DNA of 64,000 bases from an uncultured Prevotellaceae bacterium (GCA_900314755.1 OMWH01000002.1:25926-89925); one strand, 5' to 3'. Positions 10,968 to 19,268 are shown, numbered from the stretch's first letter. Program-made: numbers and translations. Notes: generated from the sequence alone by a model not told the origin.

Positions 10968-10992
10968 TCCCCTACTCCTTCCAATAAACAAA

Positions 10993-11024
10993 AAGAGGAT
11001 GTGTCTATTTTTACACATCCTCTT
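10993..11024. terminator. Intrinsic (bidirectional-type) terminator after rpsA
   Basis: AAGAGGATGTGT-CTATTTTT-ACACATCCTCTT, 12-bp stem. Confidence 0.85.
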
Positions 11025-11561
11025 CTTATTTTCATTATTCACATGCTGTTGTCCTTTGAACTGTTTGCCATTCTTGTGATTGTCATGGTCATCATTTCTC
11101 TTACTGCCAAAGATAAGACAGAACCTCTGAAAGGCTACGGGAAAGGCAATGGGTAGGTACGTCAGCGGGAATGGGCGAATAAGTTCGGGTAATCGACAAA
11201 ATCGCTTTGCTTGCAAAAATTGTTCAGTGAAACTGTCGTCATAACCTAACATGTTTAAACGTCCGCTGCAAAATTAATAGAAGTTAAAAATGTCTTTATT
11301 TATGGCGTTTTCTGGATATAGTAGAGGTATTGTGACAAAAAAATAACTAACTTTGCTGTCGCAGACTACACTACCGCTTGTATGGATAGGCAGGACGCAT
11401 ATATACTGATTAGTGTTTACAAATGCTGACTTGACTTTCCCAAACTTCGCAAACTTGGAAAGTGGATGAGGTGATGTAAGAGGCCCACACTTTTCTTTAT
11501 ATATCCTCCAATAGATATTAACACTCCAGTTTTGGGCTTGGCTGGCATATTTATATATAAT

Positions 11562-12296
11562 ATGTCTGAGGGAAGGGTTTGCCCGTACTGTAAAAACGAG
11601 CTTGCTGATGACAAGGGTGGTACTGCTACTAAGGCCGTGAATTGGGCTTTGACTGTAGCAGGAGATTTTGCTCTGACATCTTTAAACATTAAAGGCTCAT
11701 TCAGTGGTGGACAAGTTCTGCCTGTACCTATGAAATGCCATAATTGTGGCCGAAGATATAGTGACGCATGGGGAAGCTTGTCTATGAAAAAGGAATATTC
11801 ATTACGATACCTTTTAGACAACCTTAGACGAAATTACGAACCAAAATATATAAGCGAGGACAAGGAAACAACGGATAAACTGTATAGGGAAAGAAATGAA
11901 AAGATGCTGCAAGATTTGCAGAAAATATTAAATATAAACTTGTCTGAGGCTGTTACGGAAGAATTTTTGCAAACTCATGGTTATGACGCTTGTAATTACC
12001 TCTTAAAAGAAATTGGAGAAGATAAACCACTTAAAGAACTTTTTCGATACAATACAAAAGAAACGCTTTTCCCAATAATAAACAAGATAATTAAAAGTAA
12101 AGGGGATAAGGAAAATTTGCCTTGCCATATAAATTATAAGCACAAGATGAAAGATCTTGGCGTTACTGGTTTTTTTACATCAGGTACTTTCTTGACTGAA
12201 TTAAGAAAGTGTTATGGTGATTTGCCGGATATACCATACCCAGACGATAATATTATGTTAGGCAATTATATCTCAAAAGTCCTATCCTCTTTATGA
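11562..12296 (+). CDS. Hypothetical protein with N-terminal zinc-ribbon-like CPYC...CHNC
   Basis: ORF 11532-12296; likely ATG 11562 after an AT-rich tract. Two CxxC pairs. Promoter box TAACTTTG at 11348-11355. Confidence 0.7.
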   Translation: MSEGRVCPYCKNELADDKGGTATKAVNWALTVAGDFALTSLNIKGSFSGGQVLPVPMKCHNCGRRYSDAWGSLSMKKEYSLRYLLDNLRRNYEPKYISEDKETTDKLYRERNEKMLQDLQKILNINLSEAVTEEFLQTHGYDACNYLLKEIGEDKPLKELFRYNTKETLFPIINKIIKSKGDKENLPCHINYKHKMKDLGVTGFFTSGTFLTELRKCYGDLPDIPYPDDNIMLGNYISKVLSSL

Positions 12297-12306
12297 TTTT
12301 CAATGA

Positions 12307-12347
12307 GAGTCGGACGTTTTTTGTCATACTAGCGAAATAATTTTGCC
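12307..12347 (+). promoter_or_regulatory. Promoter with conserved upstream operator, copy 1
   Basis: GAGTCGGAC-GTT-TTTTGTC-N12-TAATTTTGCC, 17 nt before ATG 12365. Confidence 0.75.
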
Positions 12348-12364
12348 AGGCATAAATAAAAAAC

Positions 12365-13780
12365 ATGGAAGAGAAAAGAATTATATTAGGCATAGATGTT
12401 GATGATGGAAATGTTTTCAATTCCTACATTAAATCAGCTGTTTCGCAAGCAGAGATAGAGCTGTTGACGCTAGACGAATCCATAGAATCAATTAAATCAA
12501 TAAAGCCTAATTGCGACAAAACAGATTATGTTTTAGCTGCAAGTTCTGGGGCAATATGTGGTATAATTGACATATTTCTCGTAGGCAAGCCTGGTGAATC
12601 TGTATTAGGAGGTATCACTGACAAATGGTTTGAAAAACGAACTTGTGATTTTGCTAAATTATGTGGTTGGAAAGGAAATGACAAAAACCCCGTAAAGTCG
12701 GCAATAGGTTTTTTAGAGAGAAAATTTAAAGTTCCTTATGACCAGAGAGGATGTGGGGATGCTGGGGCTTTCATATACAATCTTACCCCTTCAAACCATC
12801 ACTTCAAGTCTTTGGCTCACAACCCGTCATTGCTTGGATTGTTTTTCTCTATTTTAGACCAATTCACAAATACTTCTCATTTTATATCTGAAGGTAAACT
12901 TATCGAGTTGGAGGAGGCTGATGATAAATTTCAGCTAAGAGGGAATAGCGTTATCAGTAAGTTTTGGTGCGGATTTGTGAACTGGTTTGGGCATCTTATG
13001 TCTGATGTGTCTGGAGCGTCAGGAAGTAAAACTAGAGGGATGGGAATACCATCGCCACTATGGACTTGGACTAACAGTGTTATCGCTATAAAAGCAAAGC
13101 TAAATCTCCCTATTAGTAAATTCGACAAGGATATAAATGAGTTTGCAATAAAAATATTTGAAGAGGGTTATGATACCAGATTCCAAGCCACACAAGTAAT
13201 ACCAGTATTGATAAATGAGTTTGTGGTTAGATTGTTTTATGCGATTAGGAGGCTTCTGAATTACTATTCCCACACAAATAAAGAAGAACGCTCTTTGAAA
13301 ACTGCATGGAAAGCATGTGAACCTTTCACCAATCCTACAGTGAAAAGAATGTTGCTGGTTGCTCATAGTACATTCTGTCTCATAGATATAGGAGAAGCTA
13401 CTGTAATAGGCTTTGCTACTGCTCCAGGTTCCTTTAATGCAAAGGAATTTCTTATGCACTTAAATATCGCAGGGATAGGGAGATTGTCTTTTTCTTTATA
13501 TGGCGAGGCAAAGATGCGGATTAATTACCGCAACGCAGAATTGGCAGCACAATATACCCAAAAAGAGAAACATATTGTCGAAAGATACATAGAAGGTCTA
13601 AATACTCTCAAAGTTCTTTATGATGACAGAGAGTATTTTACCTTCGTAGATGACCTAAAGATCAATAATTATATTGAAGCATTTGGTAAATCTGTGGAAT
13701 TGGCAAAGCTAAGAAATGCTCCAGTTAAATATGAATCTAAACAATCAATAGATGACTACTTTAATCCCAAACAGCAATGA
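12365..13780 (+). CDS. Hypothetical membrane-associated protein, possible metal-dependent hydrolase
   Basis: 471-aa ORF with hydrophobic helices, KVPYD, NHHFKSLAH and GHLMSD. ATGA overlap with the next gene. Confidence 0.8.
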   Translation: MEEKRIILGIDVDDGNVFNSYIKSAVSQAEIELLTLDESIESIKSIKPNCDKTDYVLAASSGAICGIIDIFLVGKPGESVLGGITDKWFEKRTCDFAKLCGWKGNDKNPVKSAIGFLERKFKVPYDQRGCGDAGAFIYNLTPSNHHFKSLAHNPSLLGLFFSILDQFTNTSHFISEGKLIELEEADDKFQLRGNSVISKFWCGFVNWFGHLMSDVSGASGSKTRGMGIPSPLWTWTNSVIAIKAKLNLPISKFDKDINEFAIKIFEEGYDTRFQATQVIPVLINEFVVRLFYAIRRLLNYYSHTNKEERSLKTAWKACEPFTNPTVKRMLLVAHSTFCLIDIGEATVIGFATAPGSFNAKEFLMHLNIAGIGRLSFSLYGEAKMRINYRNAELAAQYTQKEKHIVERYIEGLNTLKVLYDDREYFTFVDDLKINNYIEAFGKSVELAKLRNAPVKYESKQSIDDYFNPKQQ

Positions 13781-14892
13781 TTATGAGCAAGAAAAAAAAT
13801 AAACTTCAAGAAGCAGCTGAAAAAGTTAAGGCTGAGGTTGAACTTACTAATAGTAAGATCTCCGAGTTGGGCAATTATTCATATAGTCTCAATAATGTAT
13901 TAAACATCATACAGACTCAGTTTGATAAAATACGAAATATCCCAAGTGATAAACATATTGAGTATGACAAGATAAAGAAAGCCAGACTAACATGGACGCG
14001 TGAAGTTGAAAAAATAGAGGCCAATTACAAATCCTCTCAGACTATAAATGTTAGTTCAGGAGCAGCAGGAGCCGCAACTGGAGTCGGTGTTGTAACACTA
14101 GCTCCAACCGCAGCAATGAGTATTGCTACCACATTTGGTGTGGCTTCAACTGGAACAGCTATTTCCTCTCTAAGTGGAGCAGCTGCTACCAATGCGGCAT
14201 TAGCTTGGTTGGGCGGAGGAACATTGGCCGCTGGTGGCGGTGGAATGGCTGGAGGTTCTGCTCTTCTTGCTTTAGCAGGGCCTGTTGGCTGGTCTATTGC
14301 AGGTGTAGCCTTGTTAGGGGGTGGTATAATGTTTTGGCTTACATCATCCGACAAGAAAAAGTTGGAGGAGATCTATTGCTTGATTAGTGAAAGAGATATT
14401 AAGTCGTATGATTTGGCTATTGTTGAGTTGAATGAACGCATAACAAGAATTCAACAAGAGACTAAACTGCTTAATGATGCTATTGTTGAAATAGGGTCTT
14501 TTGGTACTGACTATACACAAATGAGCGAAAATCAGCAATATACGCTTGGGACATATCTTAATCAAATGATTTCTTCAACCCAACTTTTGATCAACCCAAT
14601 AATGGGACTCCAACCAAATTATTCAGAAAATGATTTTGAAAAATACTTATCTTTTCATAGAGTAGAGCCAAAGTATCGTGAAAAGAAAATAAAGAAGCTG
14701 GTAATATACATGGCAAATCTTCTGTTCGGCATAGAAACAGACGAGAAAGGTCGTAAGTTGCTTGCTAAATCATACAGAAAAAACAAAGAGTTTCTTAAAG
14801 ACATGAAATTAGAGAAGAAAGATGTTGATATAGAAATTCTAAATACTGTAGATGATGCTATAAAGTATAAGGAGGAATTGTCAAAGAAATAG
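13777..14892 (+). CDS. Hypothetical coiled-coil protein with long Gly/Ala-rich hydrophobic hairpin
   Basis: 371 aa; central STGTAISSLSGAAATNAALAWLGGGTLAAGGGGMAGG...GPVGW flanked by charged helical regions. Confidence 0.8.
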   Translation: MIMSKKKNKLQEAAEKVKAEVELTNSKISELGNYSYSLNNVLNIIQTQFDKIRNIPSDKHIEYDKIKKARLTWTREVEKIEANYKSSQTINVSSGAAGAATGVGVVTLAPTAAMSIATTFGVASTGTAISSLSGAAATNAALAWLGGGTLAAGGGGMAGGSALLALAGPVGWSIAGVALLGGGIMFWLTSSDKKKLEEIYCLISERDIKSYDLAIVELNERITRIQQETKLLNDAIVEIGSFGTDYTQMSENQQYTLGTYLNQMISSTQLLINPIMGLQPNYSENDFEKYLSFHRVEPKYREKKIKKLVIYMANLLFGIETDEKGRKLLAKSYRKNKEFLKDMKLEKKDVDIEILNTVDDAIKYKEELSKK

Positions 14893-14900
14893 TTTTCAAT

Positions 14901-15800
14901 ATGTCGCAGCTAAAGAAATGCCTTTATATCATTGACCTGCTTAGACGGAGGGGGGCTATGTCGCTGAATGAAATCAATGAATCATTCAGGTATTCTCCTT
15001 TGTACGATAAGAACATAGAACCTCGTACCTTCGCCCGATACAAAGACTTCATTGCCCTGAACTTTCCATATTACATAGAGTTCAACAATAGGACGAAGAA
15101 GTATGAGCTGTTTCGTGACAAGCCGCTATATGGTGAGGACAGTTCTCTCTACGACTATTTGTTGTCTGCCTACCATATACAAAGTATCACAGAACTTGCC
15201 ATAAAACACCAGGACAAGATAATGACGGCAGAAGTTCCAACGGGAGTAGAGAACGTACATATCATTCTGGAAGCCATCGACAAGCAGCGAGGTATAGAGT
15301 GTACCTACTATTCATTTACCAAAGAGTCTGCCAAAGAACAGACCATAATCCCCTGTTTCCTTAAAACCTGGGAAGGTCGTTGGTATCTGGTTGCCGAACC
15401 AGCAAACCAGCAACATGAACCTGCGGTATATGCCCTTGAACGCATGGATAACATCAGACTTACAGATAAGACCATGCGCCCAACCAAGAAGATTACACCA
15501 GAGAAATACTTTGACGGCAGTTTTGGTATCAACCATTCAGATGACCAGAAACCAGAGATAATAAGGATTAAGGTTTACGGTTCACAGGTTGCTTATGTCA
15601 GGACGCTCCCAATCCATGAATCTCAGAAAGAAGTTGAGACAACAGAGGACTGGAGCATCTTTGAGTATCGGCTTGTTCCATGCTTCAACTTGTATCAGGA
15701 GTTATTATGGCATCGTGAGAAAATTGAAGTCTTGGAACCTCTCTATGTCAGGGAAGAAATGAAAAACATTGTAGAGGCATTGCATAATATATATAAATAG
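14901..15800 (+). CDS. WYL-domain transcriptional regulator (HTH-WYL-WCX)
   Basis: N-terminal winged-HTH-like region, GRWYLVA, YALERM, YFDGSFGI, IEVLEPLYVREEM (WCX). Confidence 0.9.
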   Translation: MSQLKKCLYIIDLLRRRGAMSLNEINESFRYSPLYDKNIEPRTFARYKDFIALNFPYYIEFNNRTKKYELFRDKPLYGEDSSLYDYLLSAYHIQSITELAIKHQDKIMTAEVPTGVENVHIILEAIDKQRGIECTYYSFTKESAKEQTIIPCFLKTWEGRWYLVAEPANQQHEPAVYALERMDNIRLTDKTMRPTKKITPEKYFDGSFGINHSDDQKPEIIRIKVYGSQVAYVRTLPIHESQKEVETTEDWSIFEYRLVPCFNLYQELLWHREKIEVLEPLYVREEMKNIVEALHNIYK

Positions 15801-15845
15801 GTATGCTATGGTTCGTTATTTCTTTTATTTTCAAAATTTATTTTC

Positions 15846-15886
15846 GAGTCGGACACCTTTTGTCTGTTACCAAAACTAACTTTGCC
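15846..15886 (+). promoter_or_regulatory. Promoter with conserved upstream operator, copy 2
   Basis: GAGTCGGAC-ACC-TTTTGTC-N12-TAACTTTGCC, 33 nt before ATG 15920; spacing identical to copy 1. Confidence 0.75.
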
Positions 15887-15919
15887 CTCGAAATTAGTAA
15901 TTAATAGGAGAAATAAGTT

Positions 15920-16657
15920 ATGAATCAAGACAAAGACCTCGCGTTTCTCGCAACGTGTAAGAATGAAGATCTACGTACATTGTGCGACATTCTCACTTAT
16001 AACAAGAATGGGGAGGTTCGCATGAGTGAACAGCTTACAAACTCTGATGTCTACATCAACTGTTATCCAGACAAGATGAACCTCATGTCAAGGCAAATCG
16101 GGGAAGAACTGCGTAAGTTTGGCAGCAATACAGTTAAGACTTTCTGCCGTCAGGGTGAAGCAGACAGTTACGAAACCATTGTTCGCCGTGTATGTAAGCG
16201 AATGAAGGTGAATGTCGGTAGCAGCAATGACACTCAAACGATGGAGCGTGAACTGCTGACAACCATCTGTGAGCAATCTGCCAGTAAGATGTCCGATGAA
16301 GAACTGAGAAACATTGCGGACAAGGCAGGTATTCCCCATAAGTCTCTCAATAAGCAGATGCTGACATACGTTGTGATGATGGCAATTCGCAGAAACACCT
16401 ATCTTATGACTGAAATGCTCTATTATGTAACAACAAGTATTGCAGAAATGCTTCTTGGTCGTTGGATAACAATGATGGGTATGGGTACAGTAGGTCGCTA
16501 TCTTGGTATGGCAGCAGGGCCAATAGGCTGGGCTGCTTTGGCTGGTTGGACTATCAGCGATATTGCATCCCCGGCATATCGTGTGATGATACCAGCCGTG
16601 ATAATGGTTGCATCTATGCGCTTCCGTCAGACTGCATTGTTAACTCAAAAGATTTAG
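15920..16657 (+). CDS. YaaW / UPF0174 (DUF3944 N-terminal) family protein
   Basis: DKDLAFLATCKNEDLRTLCDILT, EELRKFGSN, GPIGW, SPAYRVMIPAV resemble E. coli YaaW (DSDLDFLQHCSEEQL, ELQHFGGD, SAYRVTIPAV), recalled from memory. Confidence 0.8.
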   Translation: MNQDKDLAFLATCKNEDLRTLCDILTYNKNGEVRMSEQLTNSDVYINCYPDKMNLMSRQIGEELRKFGSNTVKTFCRQGEADSYETIVRRVCKRMKVNVGSSNDTQTMERELLTTICEQSASKMSDEELRNIADKAGIPHKSLNKQMLTYVVMMAIRRNTYLMTEMLYYVTTSIAEMLLGRWITMMGMGTVGRYLGMAAGPIGWAALAGWTISDIASPAYRVMIPAVIMVASMRFRQTALLTQKI

Positions 16658-16662
16658 TGACT

Positions 16663-17445
16663 ATGGAAGCAAGAGACATCATGCACCCAGAGGATGCTAA
16701 AGCGATTCAGATGTTAAAACGCATAAAGGGTTTTGATGCCTTAGTCCGTGCCTCAATGGAACATGGCTACGAGAAAATCTTCCGTGGAGAGAATCTTGGA
16801 TGTATGGTAAGAGTGAATGCTCAGAATAGCCACAACCTATACACGGCTTTCAAAGGTGTTGTTCAAAAGGTTAGAATAGCAGAACCAGAGTTCTACATCT
16901 ATAATGATCCTGTTATGAATGCTTATACCTACGGAGAGACCAACACCTTCATTGCCGTTAGCAACTCACTCGTAGAACGGCTTACTATTGACGAGGTTAG
17001 AAGCGTCATAGCCCATGAGTGTGGGCATATTCTCTGCAAGCACACTTTCTACAACACCTTGCTACGGACGATAGAGGAACTTGGGCTTTGGTTTCAGCTT
17101 ATATCATATACAGCTTTTGCTCCTATTCTGATGGGATTGCAATATTGGAGCAGGAAAAGTGAGTATTCGGCTGATCGCTGTGCCGCTGCTGTAGTGGGTG
17201 AACGGACATTCCAGACTTCAATGCTGAAACTTACAACAGGATTGGCTGAGATCCAGGGGAATCCCTATCAACTTGTGGAACAGGCTAAGGAGTACCATCG
17301 TTTCGTTAACGATTCATGGTGGAACCGTATTCAGCAGAATTGCCGTGTGGCTTTTAATAGTCATCCTCAGATGTGTGAACGTGCCTGGGAGATCGACCGT
17401 TGGAAGAACTCATGGGCATATCGGAAATTGTATATGTCAAATTGA
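16663..17445 (+). CDS. M48 family zinc metallopeptidase (HtpX/Ste24-like)
   Basis: HEXXH (AHECGH), NAYTYG, WSRKSEYSADR. Start moved from 16462 to ATG 16663, just after the upstream stop. Confidence 0.9.
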   Translation: MEARDIMHPEDAKAIQMLKRIKGFDALVRASMEHGYEKIFRGENLGCMVRVNAQNSHNLYTAFKGVVQKVRIAEPEFYIYNDPVMNAYTYGETNTFIAVSNSLVERLTIDEVRSVIAHECGHILCKHTFYNTLLRTIEELGLWFQLISYTAFAPILMGLQYWSRKSEYSADRCAAAVVGERTFQTSMLKLTTGLAEIQGNPYQLVEQAKEYHRFVNDSWWNRIQQNCRVAFNSHPQMCERAWEIDRWKNSWAYRKLYMSN

Positions 17446-17494
17446 CGGAACATTACAAAAACAAAATAATCCTGCTATCCCTGCTACAATGTGG

Positions 17495-17574
17495 GTGAAA
17501 TGCCGATGTATAAAGGGCGGAGCCTGTAGCACGATTGGGATTTATCCTGCTACAATGGTGCTACAACCCTGCTA
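17495..17574 (+). repeat. 80-bp direct repeat, copy 1
   Basis: GTGAAATGCCGATGTATAAAGGGCGGAGCCTGTAGCACGATTGGGATTTATCCTGCTACAATGGTGCTACAACCCTGCTA; 79/80 identical to 18921-19000. Confidence 0.95.
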
Positions 17575-17659: not shown

Positions 17660-18430
17660 ATGAAATTAGAGCATCTATACGAATTGATTGCCAACGAGGG
17701 CTTTACTGCTCTGACATTACAAGAAATAGATAACTACATAAAAGATATACAAAATGGGACAGAAGATTTTCCTCGATTCAATCTATCAGAGCATGCAGGA
17801 TTCTGCACGGCAGGTGCGTCTCTCATTGGGGCGTCCATCATCGCATGCTACGCGACAGCAAGCATTACAGCAAGTCGCAATGTTGAAGGCAGCCAAGGAA
17901 GCCCAGCAAACTGGGAAATAGACGAACGACAGGAGCAACTCATCGAGCAATGGGCTAAGGCTGCCAATTTGTGGGAGGATAACTCTGAGCAGATACTTGT
18001 AGATGAATTCGGTCCTATGATTGCTCAAGGAGCAGAGGCAAAGGTGTATTATAGCGATGGAAACACTTCGGTGGTAAAAGAGCGTACTTCCATCTATTCT
18101 ACTTGGCAAAAGGCACTTGATGCAATAGTATTGCATAATTGTCTCTTCCCTGAAACAGCCATGAAAGTTATTGGTTTTACTCGCGACAAAGACGGATTGA
18201 TGCGTATTGTACTGACACAGCCATACGTAAATTGTCTCCGATTGGCGACAAAGAAAGAAATAGACGATATGGTATTGGCAAAAGGATTTCGTGACAACTG
18301 GGACGGACAAGGAGTGAACTATGTCTCCGATCGTTTGGCACTTGAAGACATGCATCCTGCAAATGTTTTCATTGACACTGTGTCAGGAAAGCCAATTTGT
18401 ATTGATTGTATCGTGAAATTTGTGAAGTGA
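17660..18430 (+). CDS. Polyvalent-protein-type Ser/Thr/Tyr kinase (Kinase-PolyVal-like)
   Basis: QGAEAKVY (Gly loop), VVKE (Lys), EDMHPANV (catalytic loop), CIDC (DFG equivalent). Start moved to ATG 17660 after TATATTTG box. Confidence 0.78.
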   Translation: MKLEHLYELIANEGFTALTLQEIDNYIKDIQNGTEDFPRFNLSEHAGFCTAGASLIGASIIACYATASITASRNVEGSQGSPANWEIDERQEQLIEQWAKAANLWEDNSEQILVDEFGPMIAQGAEAKVYYSDGNTSVVKERTSIYSTWQKALDAIVLHNCLFPETAMKVIGFTRDKDGLMRIVLTQPYVNCLRLATKKEIDDMVLAKGFRDNWDGQGVNYVSDRLALEDMHPANVFIDTVSGKPICIDCIVKFVK

Positions 18431-18431
18431 T

Positions 18432-18468
18432 ACGACTGGCAGAGTAACATTTCTGCCAGTCGTTTTTT
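18432..18468 (+). terminator. Intrinsic terminator after kinase
   Basis: ACGACTGGCAGA-GTAACATT-TCTGCCAGTCGT followed by a T tract. Confidence 0.85.
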
Positions 18469-18718: not shown

Positions 18719-18920
18719 CACCCAGATGAGAGTTGCATATAGGCGCGATAATATCAAGCTCCGCAACCGTCGATTTATAAAGCCGTTGGTCGAGAACCTA
18801 CGGCTTTAATTCATTTATGATACTTTCAATCTCTCGGCGGGACTGCTCTTTAGCATTGACTACAACGGCCTCTCCATTAAACACTATGTTTAATTTTGCA
18901 TAAAAGATAGTGTAAATGGA

Positions 18921-19000
18921 GTGAAATGCCGATGTATAAAGGGCGGAGCCTGTAGCACGATTGGGATTTATCCTGCTACAATGGTGCTACAATCCTGCTA
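18921..19000 (+). repeat. 80-bp direct repeat, copy 2
   Basis: Matches 17495-17574 except one C/T. Confidence 0.95.
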
Positions 19001-19032: not shown

Positions 19033-19098
19033 TTTGGCTATAGCCGTTCAGTTGTTTGGCTGGAGCCGCACGGTTGTTTGGCTATAGCCGAACGGTTG
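19033..19098. repeat. 3 x 22-bp tandem repeat with palindromic GGCTATAGCC core
   Basis: TTTGGCTATAGCCGTTCAGTTG / TTTGGCTGGAGCCGCACGGTTG / TTTGGCTATAGCCGAACGGTTG. Confidence 0.9.
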
Positions 19099-19239
19099 AA
19101 AGGATGCTTCTAACTCCCTCGAAGGACGTACCTGATACCCCAACACCAGTAACCTGTTACCCCTACGCAAGGCATCTTTAACTGTGACCGGAGGCATCGG
19201 ACACTCTCGTCTTACAAAGCCTTAGGTTACGTTCATGAT

Positions 19240-19268
19240 GAGGATGTGTCAAAATAGGCACATCCTCT
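19240..19268 (-). terminator. Hairpin downstream of DUF3127 gene; inverted near-copy of the rpsA terminator
   Basis: GAGGATGTGTCAAAATAGGCACATCCTCT; its reverse complement is 27/29 identical to 10994-11022. Confidence 0.75.

Follow-up and report, generated by a model that had tools for sequence, protein, structure and literature searches.

The 64,000-nucleotide stretch of DNA analysed here (the window) comes from an uncultured Prevotellaceae bacterium (GCA_900314755.1 OMWH01000002.1:25926-89925) and carries five tightly packed open reading frames (ORFs), g1 to g5, that we consider probably to form a composite anti-phage island regulated by a WYL-domain protein. This island appears to be composed of two separable parts, and it is situated in a strain-variable hotspot between the Prevotella genes rpsA and dnaN. 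One part is a block of three genes that encode a WYL transcription regulator, a homologue of the sensor protein JukA and an M48 metallopeptidase. The other part is a two-gene cargo, g1-g2, that joins a BnzB-like protein to a member of the PDC-M09A family. This reading is carried by the gene content and homologies of the locus, by linkage statistics, by the conservation of an operator, by a recombination breakpoint and by the variability of the hotspot. Because every component is of a known or catalogued kind (Bunzi, PDC-M09, Juk and BrxR-type WYL regulators), and because an association between WYL genes and jukA has been published, the locus is not a categorically new five-gene system.

Coordinates are counted in the window, and the five ORFs are as follows:

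12365-13780, + strand: g1, 471 amino acids (aa), BnzB-like with an all-alpha predicted model; opens the cargo pair
13777-14892, + strand: g2, 371 aa, PDC-M09A family
14901-15800, + strand: g3, 299 aa, WYL-WCX transcription regulator; opens the 2.55-kb WYL-JukA-M48 block
15920-16657, + strand: g4, 245 aa, JukA/YaaW homologue
16663-17445, + strand: g5, 260 aa counted from the ATG located 5 nucleotides (nt) past g4; M48 zinc metallopeptidase

The co-directional arrangement proposed in the initial annotation of this locus was confirmed when the sequence was read directly, as were the ATGA overlap of g1 with g2, the gap of 8 nt between g2 and the WYL gene, and the gap of 5 nt between g4 and g5. Pfam recognises WYL (2.9e-11) and WCX (3.4e-08) domains in g3, DUF3944 (5.3e-15) in g4 and Peptidase_M48 (PF01435, 2.3e-21) in g5. 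PADLOC, used at the level of its component hidden Markov models, matches g1 to BnzB (2.1e-106), g2 to PDC-M09A (1.4e-69), g3 to a WYL model (5e-26) and g4 to JukA (3.1e-48); there is no PADLOC match for g5 at E values up to 10.

The division into two parts is indicated by linkage counts made from several anchors. The g1-anchored set was built with one genome per species; it yielded 128 relatives, from which 80 loci were retained. These loci span Bacteroidota, Bacillota, Actinomycetota and Chloroflexota at 53-67% identity to g1, and a g2 homologue directly follows g1 in 79 of them, the 80th being cut by the end of its contig. The WYL, JukA and M48 genes are present in 3 of the 80 species loci (L008, L010 and L029), each time all three together, and g1-g2 occurs without these three genes in 76 of the 79 informative loci. 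The Bacteroidota loci L026, L047 and L064, which have ample flanking sequence, carry g1-g2 and lack the WYL-JukA-M48 block. Stand-alone pairs are also found on plasmids of Lactiplantibacillus plantarum, where they are annotated as 'hypothetical'.

The picture obtained from the other genes is complementary. There are 80 metagenome loci in the M48-anchored set, and a JukA gene is located directly upstream of the M48 gene in 69 of them, with the remainder starting at a contig edge. A WYL gene is present within 10 kb in 40 of the 80 loci, which is nearly every contig that is long enough. Close g1-g2 pairs are found in four loci of this set (L082, L088, L090 and L101), and distant BnzB-like genes (21-29% identity to g1) with other partners are found in 13 further loci. 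When the WYL gene is used as the anchor, all four long contigs consist of jukA-M48, 6-9 kb of variable co-directional genes and the WYL gene. WYL and M48 genes are found together on 45 contigs, 40 of which are co-directional throughout and have 0-9 variable genes separating the two; either gene may come first. All five families are found together in at least eight distinct loci, including L008, L010, L029, L082, L088, L090 and L101, in four gene orders and always co-directionally. The proposal of the initial annotation that the five families form one system therefore holds with respect to their recurrence together, but not with respect to g1-g2, which so often stands alone.

A recombination breakpoint separates the two parts. 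The window shares nucleotide homology of 82-93% with L081, L083, L084 and L122 that extends from 14898-14901 to 17423-17453, such that the homology begins at the WYL start codon and ends just beyond the M48 gene. WYL-JukA-M48 blocks with 90-98% protein identity bear other cargo in place of g1-g2; for example, the genes upstream of WYL are a pair that includes a Tox-GHH nuclease in L081 and a PDC-M40B-like gene in L083. The cargo of sister islands also includes Sel1-repeat proteins, several Gly/Ala-zipper membrane proteins, a PLD-like protein, a pair of vWA and AAA proteins, and dynamin-like (LeoBC-like) GTPases. The linkage counts and the breakpoint together therefore identify WYL-JukA-M48 as a conserved 2.55-kb block in Bacteroidales that is separate from the autonomous g1-g2 pair, which is exchangeable cargo. 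A phage or prophage origin of this block was rejected, because the M48 subfamily gave no match in phage records or IMG/VR.

The two transcription units share a promoter architecture, as the initial annotation had claimed. The 64 kb contains just two exact copies of the 9-mer GAGTCGGAC, at 12307 and at 15846, and each opens a 41-nt segment that ends in TAAyTTTGCC with identical spacing. Comparative analysis reduces the core of this shared box to the inverted repeat CGGACA-N5-TGTCCG, which is found approximately 45-58 nt upstream of the jukA start codon in 34 distinct promoters on other contigs. In aligned jukA promoters, the right arm of the repeat ends 10-11 nt before a -7 box. The sequence TAnnTTTG serves as the -7 promoter element in Bacteroidota and is typical of Bacteroides promoters; a sigma-70 promoter scan of the window was uninformative because this is a Bacteroidota genome. 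The corresponding elements in the window are as follows:

15850-15866, + strand: operator B, CGGACA-CCTTT-TGTCTG, 54 nt upstream of the jukA ATG
15877-15884, + strand: -7 box of the jukA-M48 unit, TAACTTTG; TAAyTTTGC is conserved in aligned jukA promoters
12311-12327, + strand: operator-like site A, CGGACG-TTTTT-TGTCAT, upstream of g1; a degenerate copy of the repeat
12338-12345, + strand: -7 box of the g1-g2-WYL unit, TAATTTTG, which matches TAnnTTTG

Operator B differs from the consensus at one position and is the sole such site in the 64 kb. Site A has three mismatches, with the left arm kept and the right arm (TGTCAT) weak. It is nevertheless credible because it shares with operator B both the GAGTCGGAC flank and the 10-nt distance to the -7 box. 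Sites with a similarly weak right arm, TGTCGT, are located 46-49 nt upstream of cargo genes, in L082 before g1 and in L081 before a different cargo, and because these cargo promoters share this feature we accept site A as a putative lower-affinity copy of the operator. The repeat also precedes other cargo cassettes, including Sel1-repeat genes (14 times) and BnzB-like, PDC-M40B-like, dynamin-like and other genes. It was not found at stand-alone g1-g2 loci, where near-matches occur only inside coding sequence. Control of both units by the WYL protein, as initially proposed, is plausible: the case for jukA-M48 is strongly backed by the 34 promoters, whereas that for site A is weak when the site is taken alone. 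The L008 contig (CADBBS010000060.1), which is labelled as a Lachnospiraceae metagenome-assembled genome, carries the five-gene set with TAnnTTTG boxes and the same operator, and it is probably mis-binned or recently transferred.

The genomic setting of the island is consistent with a role in defence, and the hotspot and the PADLOC matches together lend support to the defence function suggested in the initial annotation. The locus is flanked by proS, rpsA and dnaN, genes whose cluster members in the database bear the name Prevotella sp., and its GC content is 0.35-0.40 over 12-16 kb versus 0.44-0.46 in the flanks. Contigs that encode an exactly identical DnaN protein were taken to be from the same species on this basis and were compared with the window by blastn, which defines the following feature:

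11064-17453, no strand assigned: strain-variable hotspot segment that bears the island and a 254-aa ORF

Homology to the sister strains stops at approximately 10986-11063 and returns at 17454 or at 18915. Between rpsA and the DUF3127 gene and dnaN, the sister strains carry a 1675-aa Type ISP restriction enzyme or a cluster of EcoRI-methylase and GmrSD genes, and further variants at this site hold a 769-aa protein of unknown type or a zinc-ribbon pair. Such variation among strains is the signature of a defence hotspot.

Several other features are present in or near this variable region. The 254-aa ORF (11532-12296), located upstream of g1, has CxxC…CxxC motifs resembling a zinc ribbon. It has no match in Pfam, PADLOC or NCBIfam and no tblastn match in 160 related loci (L001-L160), and in sister strains its position is taken by a different zinc-ribbon protein of 228 aa. 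Just downstream of the M48 gene is a Kinase-PolyVal gene (PF18762, 1.7e-32) at 17660-18430, with an alternative start at 17489. Its product has one hydrophobic segment and no PADLOC match, and the gene is followed by a strong terminator at 18432-18463; in L171, a Kinase-PolyVal gene adjoins the WYL gene. The kinase gene in the window is flanked by a direct repeat of 80-120 nt (17454-17574 and 18915-19000; 99% identical over 80 nt). Because sister strains have either a single copy of this repeat without the kinase or the same flanked cassette, recombination at the repeat is suggested as the route by which the cassette is gained or lost. Hairpins at 10994-11025 and 19237-19268 share a near-identical stem, GAGGATGTGT…ACACATCCTC (32 nt, 91% mutually complementary), and enclose all of the variable region from rpsA to the DUF3127 gene. 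Their role may be that of terminators, or they may constitute a repeated element marking the hotspot. In addition, three tandem copies of the 22-nt unit TTTGGCTATAGCCGTTCAGTTG, each containing a short palindrome, are located at 19033-19098, in the interval that separates the DUF3127 gene from the second direct-repeat copy. There is no tRNA, tmRNA or known RNA family in the window that could serve as an integration target or regulator.

The first cargo protein, g1, is a clear homologue of BnzB. Its residues 32-399 align to positions 143-494 of the 504-position PADLOC model. In BLASTP comparisons with the Bunzi sequences given in the supplement to Millman et al. 2022 (bioRxiv 10.1101/2022.05.11.491447), g1 was 32% identical to the experimentally verified Ligilactobacillus animalis BnzB (E 5e-44) and 44% identical to E. 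coli BnzB (E 3e-69). There are more than 2200 homologues of g1, and BnzB-like genes are present on more than 470 enterobacterial plasmids. An AlphaFold2 model built from a 120-sequence alignment is all-alpha with a predicted local distance difference test (pLDDT) score of 76.5; an alignment of this depth was required, as 20 sequences gave a pLDDT of 46. A Foldseek search of the PDB with this model found no match (best E 0.15, template modelling score ~0.1), and a profile search of PDB sequences gave 0 matches at E values up to 5. Neither g1 nor g2 has a meaningful Pfam match at E values up to 1; the match to C19orf12 (E 0.18), though non-significant, fits a Gly-zipper. The description of g1 as a hydrolase in the initial annotation was dropped because none of the Pfam, PDB-sequence and Foldseek searches gave a match, and since the Foldseek search found nothing, no inference is drawn from the fold.

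The second cargo protein, g2, matches both PDC-M09A models over nearly the whole of their length (PDLC04406 at 1.4e-69 and PDLC04407 at 1e-68). It has a coiled-coil-like N-terminus, a Gly/Ala-rich hydrophobic hairpin at residues ~95-190 that includes the sequence GPVGW, and a C-terminal helical domain. Hydropathy peaks at residues 99-123 and 160-191, and a stretch of 98 residues contains 22 Gly and 24 Ala. Hydropathy bears out only in part the prediction that three or four of the products are directed to the membrane: g2 is a clear case, g1 shows a single hydrophobic helix, JukA has a weak C-terminal segment, and the M48 protein has no segment at or above 1.4. There is no BnzA match for g2 at E values up to 10 with PADLOC and no TerB match in Pfam at E values up to 1. 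The idea that g2 is a diverged BnzA was rejected, as hhalign gave a probability of 0.5% and the one part of the sequences to align was the Gly/Ala-rich stretch (E 0.009). Likewise, none of the seven proteins of the island matches the PADLOC model for PDC-M09B. That model is matched weakly (9e-08) by c15, an unrelated cargo family of sister islands. Since g1 and PDC-M09B belong to different families, the g1-g2 pair joins the BnzB protein of Bunzi to the M09A protein of PDC-M09 and fits neither definition.

Distant BnzB-like proteins with 21-29% identity to g1 are paired with other partners. In L091, L107, L126 and L128 the partner belongs to cluster c19, a coiled-coil protein with a C-terminal transmembrane helix, and in L125, L149 and L157 it belongs to cluster c22, an M09A-related Gly-zipper protein whose gene precedes the BnzB-like one. 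A relationship between g2 and c22 was accepted on the basis of hhalign (97%) and one between g2 and c19 was rejected with the same tool. BnzB would seem to be the fixed component in a family of two-gene modules that differ in the partner.

For the regulator g3, the PADLOC WYL model PDLC01457 aligns from residue 4, and Pfam does not call a helix-turn-helix (HTH) domain at E values up to 1. By our own reading of the sequence, its N-terminus resembles a PafC-type HTH. Matches to WYL proteins in the PDB are weak (E ~1e-3 to 1e-4) and include DriD (8tp8). The neighbours of g3, as identified with PADLOC, are BnzB-like, M09A and JukA genes, and they are located in a hotspot that bears restriction systems in sister strains. 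The repressor BrxR, a characterised member of this group, recognises inverted repeats that have a 5-bp spacer and occur as two boxes in a single defence island, and 48% of BrxR homologues co-localise with defence systems (PMC9122601).

The g4 protein is a full-length JukA homologue, with residues 2-237 matching the PADLOC model. It has the DUF3944 domain at its N-terminus, a weak Pfam match to Ubiq_cyt_C_chap (0.0016) and a C-terminal GPIGW segment, and a search against the PDB gave only noise. Members of its cluster carry the Joint Genome Institute name YaaW (UPF0174). The statement in the initial annotation that YaaW lacks a known function is out of date, because this protein is JukA, the sensor of the Juk system that recruits the pore-forming protein JukB against phiKZ-like phages (bioRxiv 10.1101/2022.09.17.508391; reviewed in PMC13434031). 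JukA combines with variable effectors, and WYL genes are the commonest defence-associated neighbours of jukA (bioRxiv 10.1101/2022.09.17.508391).

The partner of JukA at this locus, g5, has a zinc site comprising an HExxH motif and a downstream Glu ligand (H118, E119, H122 and E167, all invariant in 20 homologues). It resembles HtpX and matches the HtpX fragment 3cqb at 8.6e-10. Some M48 homologues also give weak matches to Peptidase_M56, the BlaR1 family, and there is a weak NCBIfam match to blaR1_generic. Distant M48 relatives occur on plasmids without JukA, and for this reason the pairing with JukA appears specific to the M48 subfamily of g5. The text of the Juk preprint and its searchable supplements do not mention M48 as a partner of JukA, and a literature search on DUF3944 or UPF0174 together with M48 returned nothing relevant. 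A second JukA paralogue is present in L139, L147, L153, L111 and L114, where it is followed by a protein of 380-540 aa (cluster c7) that has a C-terminal glycine zipper and no PADLOC match. These genes may represent another pairing of JukA with an effector.

The initial annotation had recognised no named system of this composition. Three of the five products do match PADLOC models (BnzB, PDC-M09A and JukA), but none of the corresponding systems is complete at the locus, as BnzA is missing for Bunzi, M09B for PDC-M09 and JukB for Juk. The resemblance to Bunzi (BnzA and BnzB) lies in g1, in the two-gene module and in a partner that has a Gly/Ala-rich transmembrane region in both cases. However, the g2 partner is not BnzA and has no TerB domain, and here the BnzB-like gene comes first, the reverse of the Bunzi order. 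In addition, g1 lacks the N-terminal coiled-coil extension of ~130 aa found in BnzB, and a coiled-coil-like N-terminus is present on g2 instead. With PDC-M09, a PADLOC candidate system composed of M09A and M09B, the locus shares M09A but not M09B, and a literature search found no paper that mentions PDC-M09.

Juk is resembled in the full-length JukA protein with DUF3944, the two-gene operon with a tightly coupled partner, and the adjacent WYL gene. The differences are that an M48 zinc metallopeptidase stands in place of JukB and that the host belongs to the Bacteroidales of the gut or rumen, for which a phiKZ-like phage is not known as a target. The regulator shares with BrxR and CapW the WYL and WCX domains, an inverted repeat with a 5-bp spacer and multiple boxes per island (PMC9122601), as well as its location within the island and a likely autoregulatory arrangement. 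Unlike BrxR, its operator arms are 6 nt rather than 11 nt long, the operator is positioned upstream of a Bacteroidota -7 box, and the gene is tied to a jukA-M48 pair and to exchangeable cargo cassettes; its sequence similarity to solved WYL proteins is weak. There is also a likeness to BlaR1-BlaI, CapP-CapH and ImmA-ImmR, in which a zinc metalloprotease gene is constantly linked to the gene for a repressor that controls neighbouring mobile or defence genes. This likeness is a functional analogy only. The island differs from these switches in that its putative repressor, a WYL protein, has a ligand domain of its own and that the protease belongs to M48 rather than to M56 or M78.

The architecture described above suggests how the island might operate. 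A dimer of g3 would bind CGGACA-N5-TGTCCG, which occupies the place where a -33 element would sit and ends 10 nt upstream of the TAnnTTTG box, and would thereby block RNA polymerase. Upon infection or DNA damage, a ligand derived from either would occupy the WYL domain and free g3 from the operator. Because g3 would be read through from the g1-g2 promoter, it would also autoregulate via site A. Once expressed, JukA and M48 would act as a Juk-type pair in which JukA is the infection sensor and the M48 protein is a proteolytic effector that takes the place of Pseudomonas JukB. The g1-g2 pair, which is autonomous elsewhere and is here placed behind an operator-bearing cargo promoter, would serve as a Bunzi-like module whose Gly/Ala-zipper membrane partner of the M09A family replaces the TerB protein BnzA. 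It would work independently at the membrane, probably as an abortive or membrane-disrupting effector.

There are other ways to read the locus. One, which we regard as unlikely, is that JukA, M48 and WYL form a sensor-protease-repressor switch of which g1-g2 is one of many outputs. JukA would sense a cue of infection and activate or recruit M48, which would turn the cargo on by inactivating the WYL repressor or by processing Gly-zipper cargo, in the manner of BlaR1-BlaI, CapP-CapH or ImmA-ImmR. This would fit a block that travels as a single 2.55-kb unit with sharp homology edges. In 40 of 45 contigs, and in each of the four found with WYL as the anchor, its genes enclose cargo that varies in content but shares their direction. 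The operator lies ahead of jukA as well as of the cargo cassettes, much of the cargo consists of Gly/Ala-zipper membrane proteins, some M48 homologues have the Peptidase_M56 or BlaR1-type matches mentioned above, and the M48 subfamily is always paired with JukA while its distant relatives are not. However, the characterised WYL regulators BrxR, CapW, DriD and PafBC sense their ligands directly and need no protease (PMC9122601), and Pseudomonas JukA acts with an effector rather than with a regulator (PMC13434031). Moreover, because jukA-M48 is itself under the operator, the sensor of such a switch would be repressed before infection, and the second JukA copies are paired with the Gly-zipper protein c7, as would be expected of sensor-effector pairs. 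The claim of the initial annotation that the effectors are tuned by the protease is unsupported. A bolder form of this idea is also rather unlikely. Here, WYL-JukA-M48 would be an undescribed mobile three-gene chassis that puts exchangeable, mostly membrane-attacking cargo under a common operator; the protease would transduce the infection signal by cleaving the repressor or by activating Gly-zipper effectors, and the GPxGW sequence of JukA and of the M09A partner would be a common docking or insertion element.

That all five genes form a single integrated system, in which g1-g2 are pore-like effectors switched by WYL and tuned by a JukA-associated protease, seems quite improbable to us. The co-directional recurrence of the five families in at least eight loci and four orders would be explained by such a system, as would the BnzB-like proteins of several subfamilies that recur in WYL-JukA-M48 islands, the GPxGW segment common to g2 and JukA, and the related operator and promoter boxes of the two units. 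Against this stand the 76 of 79 informative species loci and the plasmids on which g1-g2 is alone, the three Bacteroidota loci that hold the pair without the block, and the near-identical blocks that carry other cargo with a breakpoint at the WYL ATG. It is more improbable still that the locus is a regulon for membrane-protein quality control or envelope stress, governed by a DNA-damage WYL regulator of the PafBC or DriD type, in which g1-g2 are stress membrane proteins. The HtpX-like M48 protein would suit such a role, JukA aligns weakly with the Cbp3 chaperone family (bioRxiv 10.1101/2022.09.17.508391), and DriD is among the nearest solved WYL structures. Yet the segment varies among strains and is replaced by restriction systems within the same species, its GC content is low, and three components match models of defence systems. 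The cargo of sister islands includes Tox-GHH nuclease, PLD-like, dynamin-like LeoBC-like and PDC-M40B-like proteins, and the M48 protein lacks the transmembrane helices of HtpX according to hydropathy.

Several observations weigh against the composite island that we favour. The sequence GPxGW, which the initial annotation had correctly seen in two of the products, occurs in nearly all homologues of g2 (73 of 75) and of JukA (61 of 62), and the remaining clusters among 906 proteins lack it. The segment that g2 and JukA share spans 30 columns in hhalign with a probability of 87%, a hint that the supposed cargo and the chassis may be tied physically or by evolution. About 20 of the 45 contigs with WYL and M48 carry BnzB-like cargo, drawn from several subfamilies. 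This is more than might be expected if cargo were random, and it could reflect functional coupling. Site A by itself matches the operator at the level of chance (25 sites with up to three mismatches were found versus 19 expected). The long contig L108 (FLNV01002052.1) has jukA-M48 and the operator, but the 10 kb to each side lack a WYL gene. In this contig jukA, at 9258, is under a perfect operator with cargo downstream; the gene for the regulator may lie at another location, or loss of the regulator may have occurred. An M48 protein acting as a Juk effector is without precedent in the searchable literature, and a lactococcal Bunzi homologue did not protect against the phages tested (PMC11381338). 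Repression by the WYL protein, the inducing signal, the anti-phage activity and the biochemistry of g1-g2 and M48 are parts of the composite-island model that we infer.

Searches of the accessible literature did not turn up the pairing of JukA with M48, the WYL-JukA-M48 block together with its operator and interchangeable cargo, the BnzB and M09A pair as a unit, or a report of an experimental test of that pair. The regulation of defence islands is poorly understood, and nearly nothing is available for Bacteroidales, the dominant bacteria of the gut and rumen. The BnzB and M09A pair is very widespread and strongly conserved across four phyla, and it falls outside the definitions of both Bunzi and PDC-M09. 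A protease rather than a pore as the partner of JukA widens the range of effectors seen with the Juk sensor. Likewise, a conserved operator and its cognate WYL regulator, which seemingly act on several unrelated cassettes, offer a route to the discovery of defence genes through 'guilt by operator'. If the chassis does prove to be a signalling switch, it would represent a new way to couple the sensing of infection with inducible immunity.

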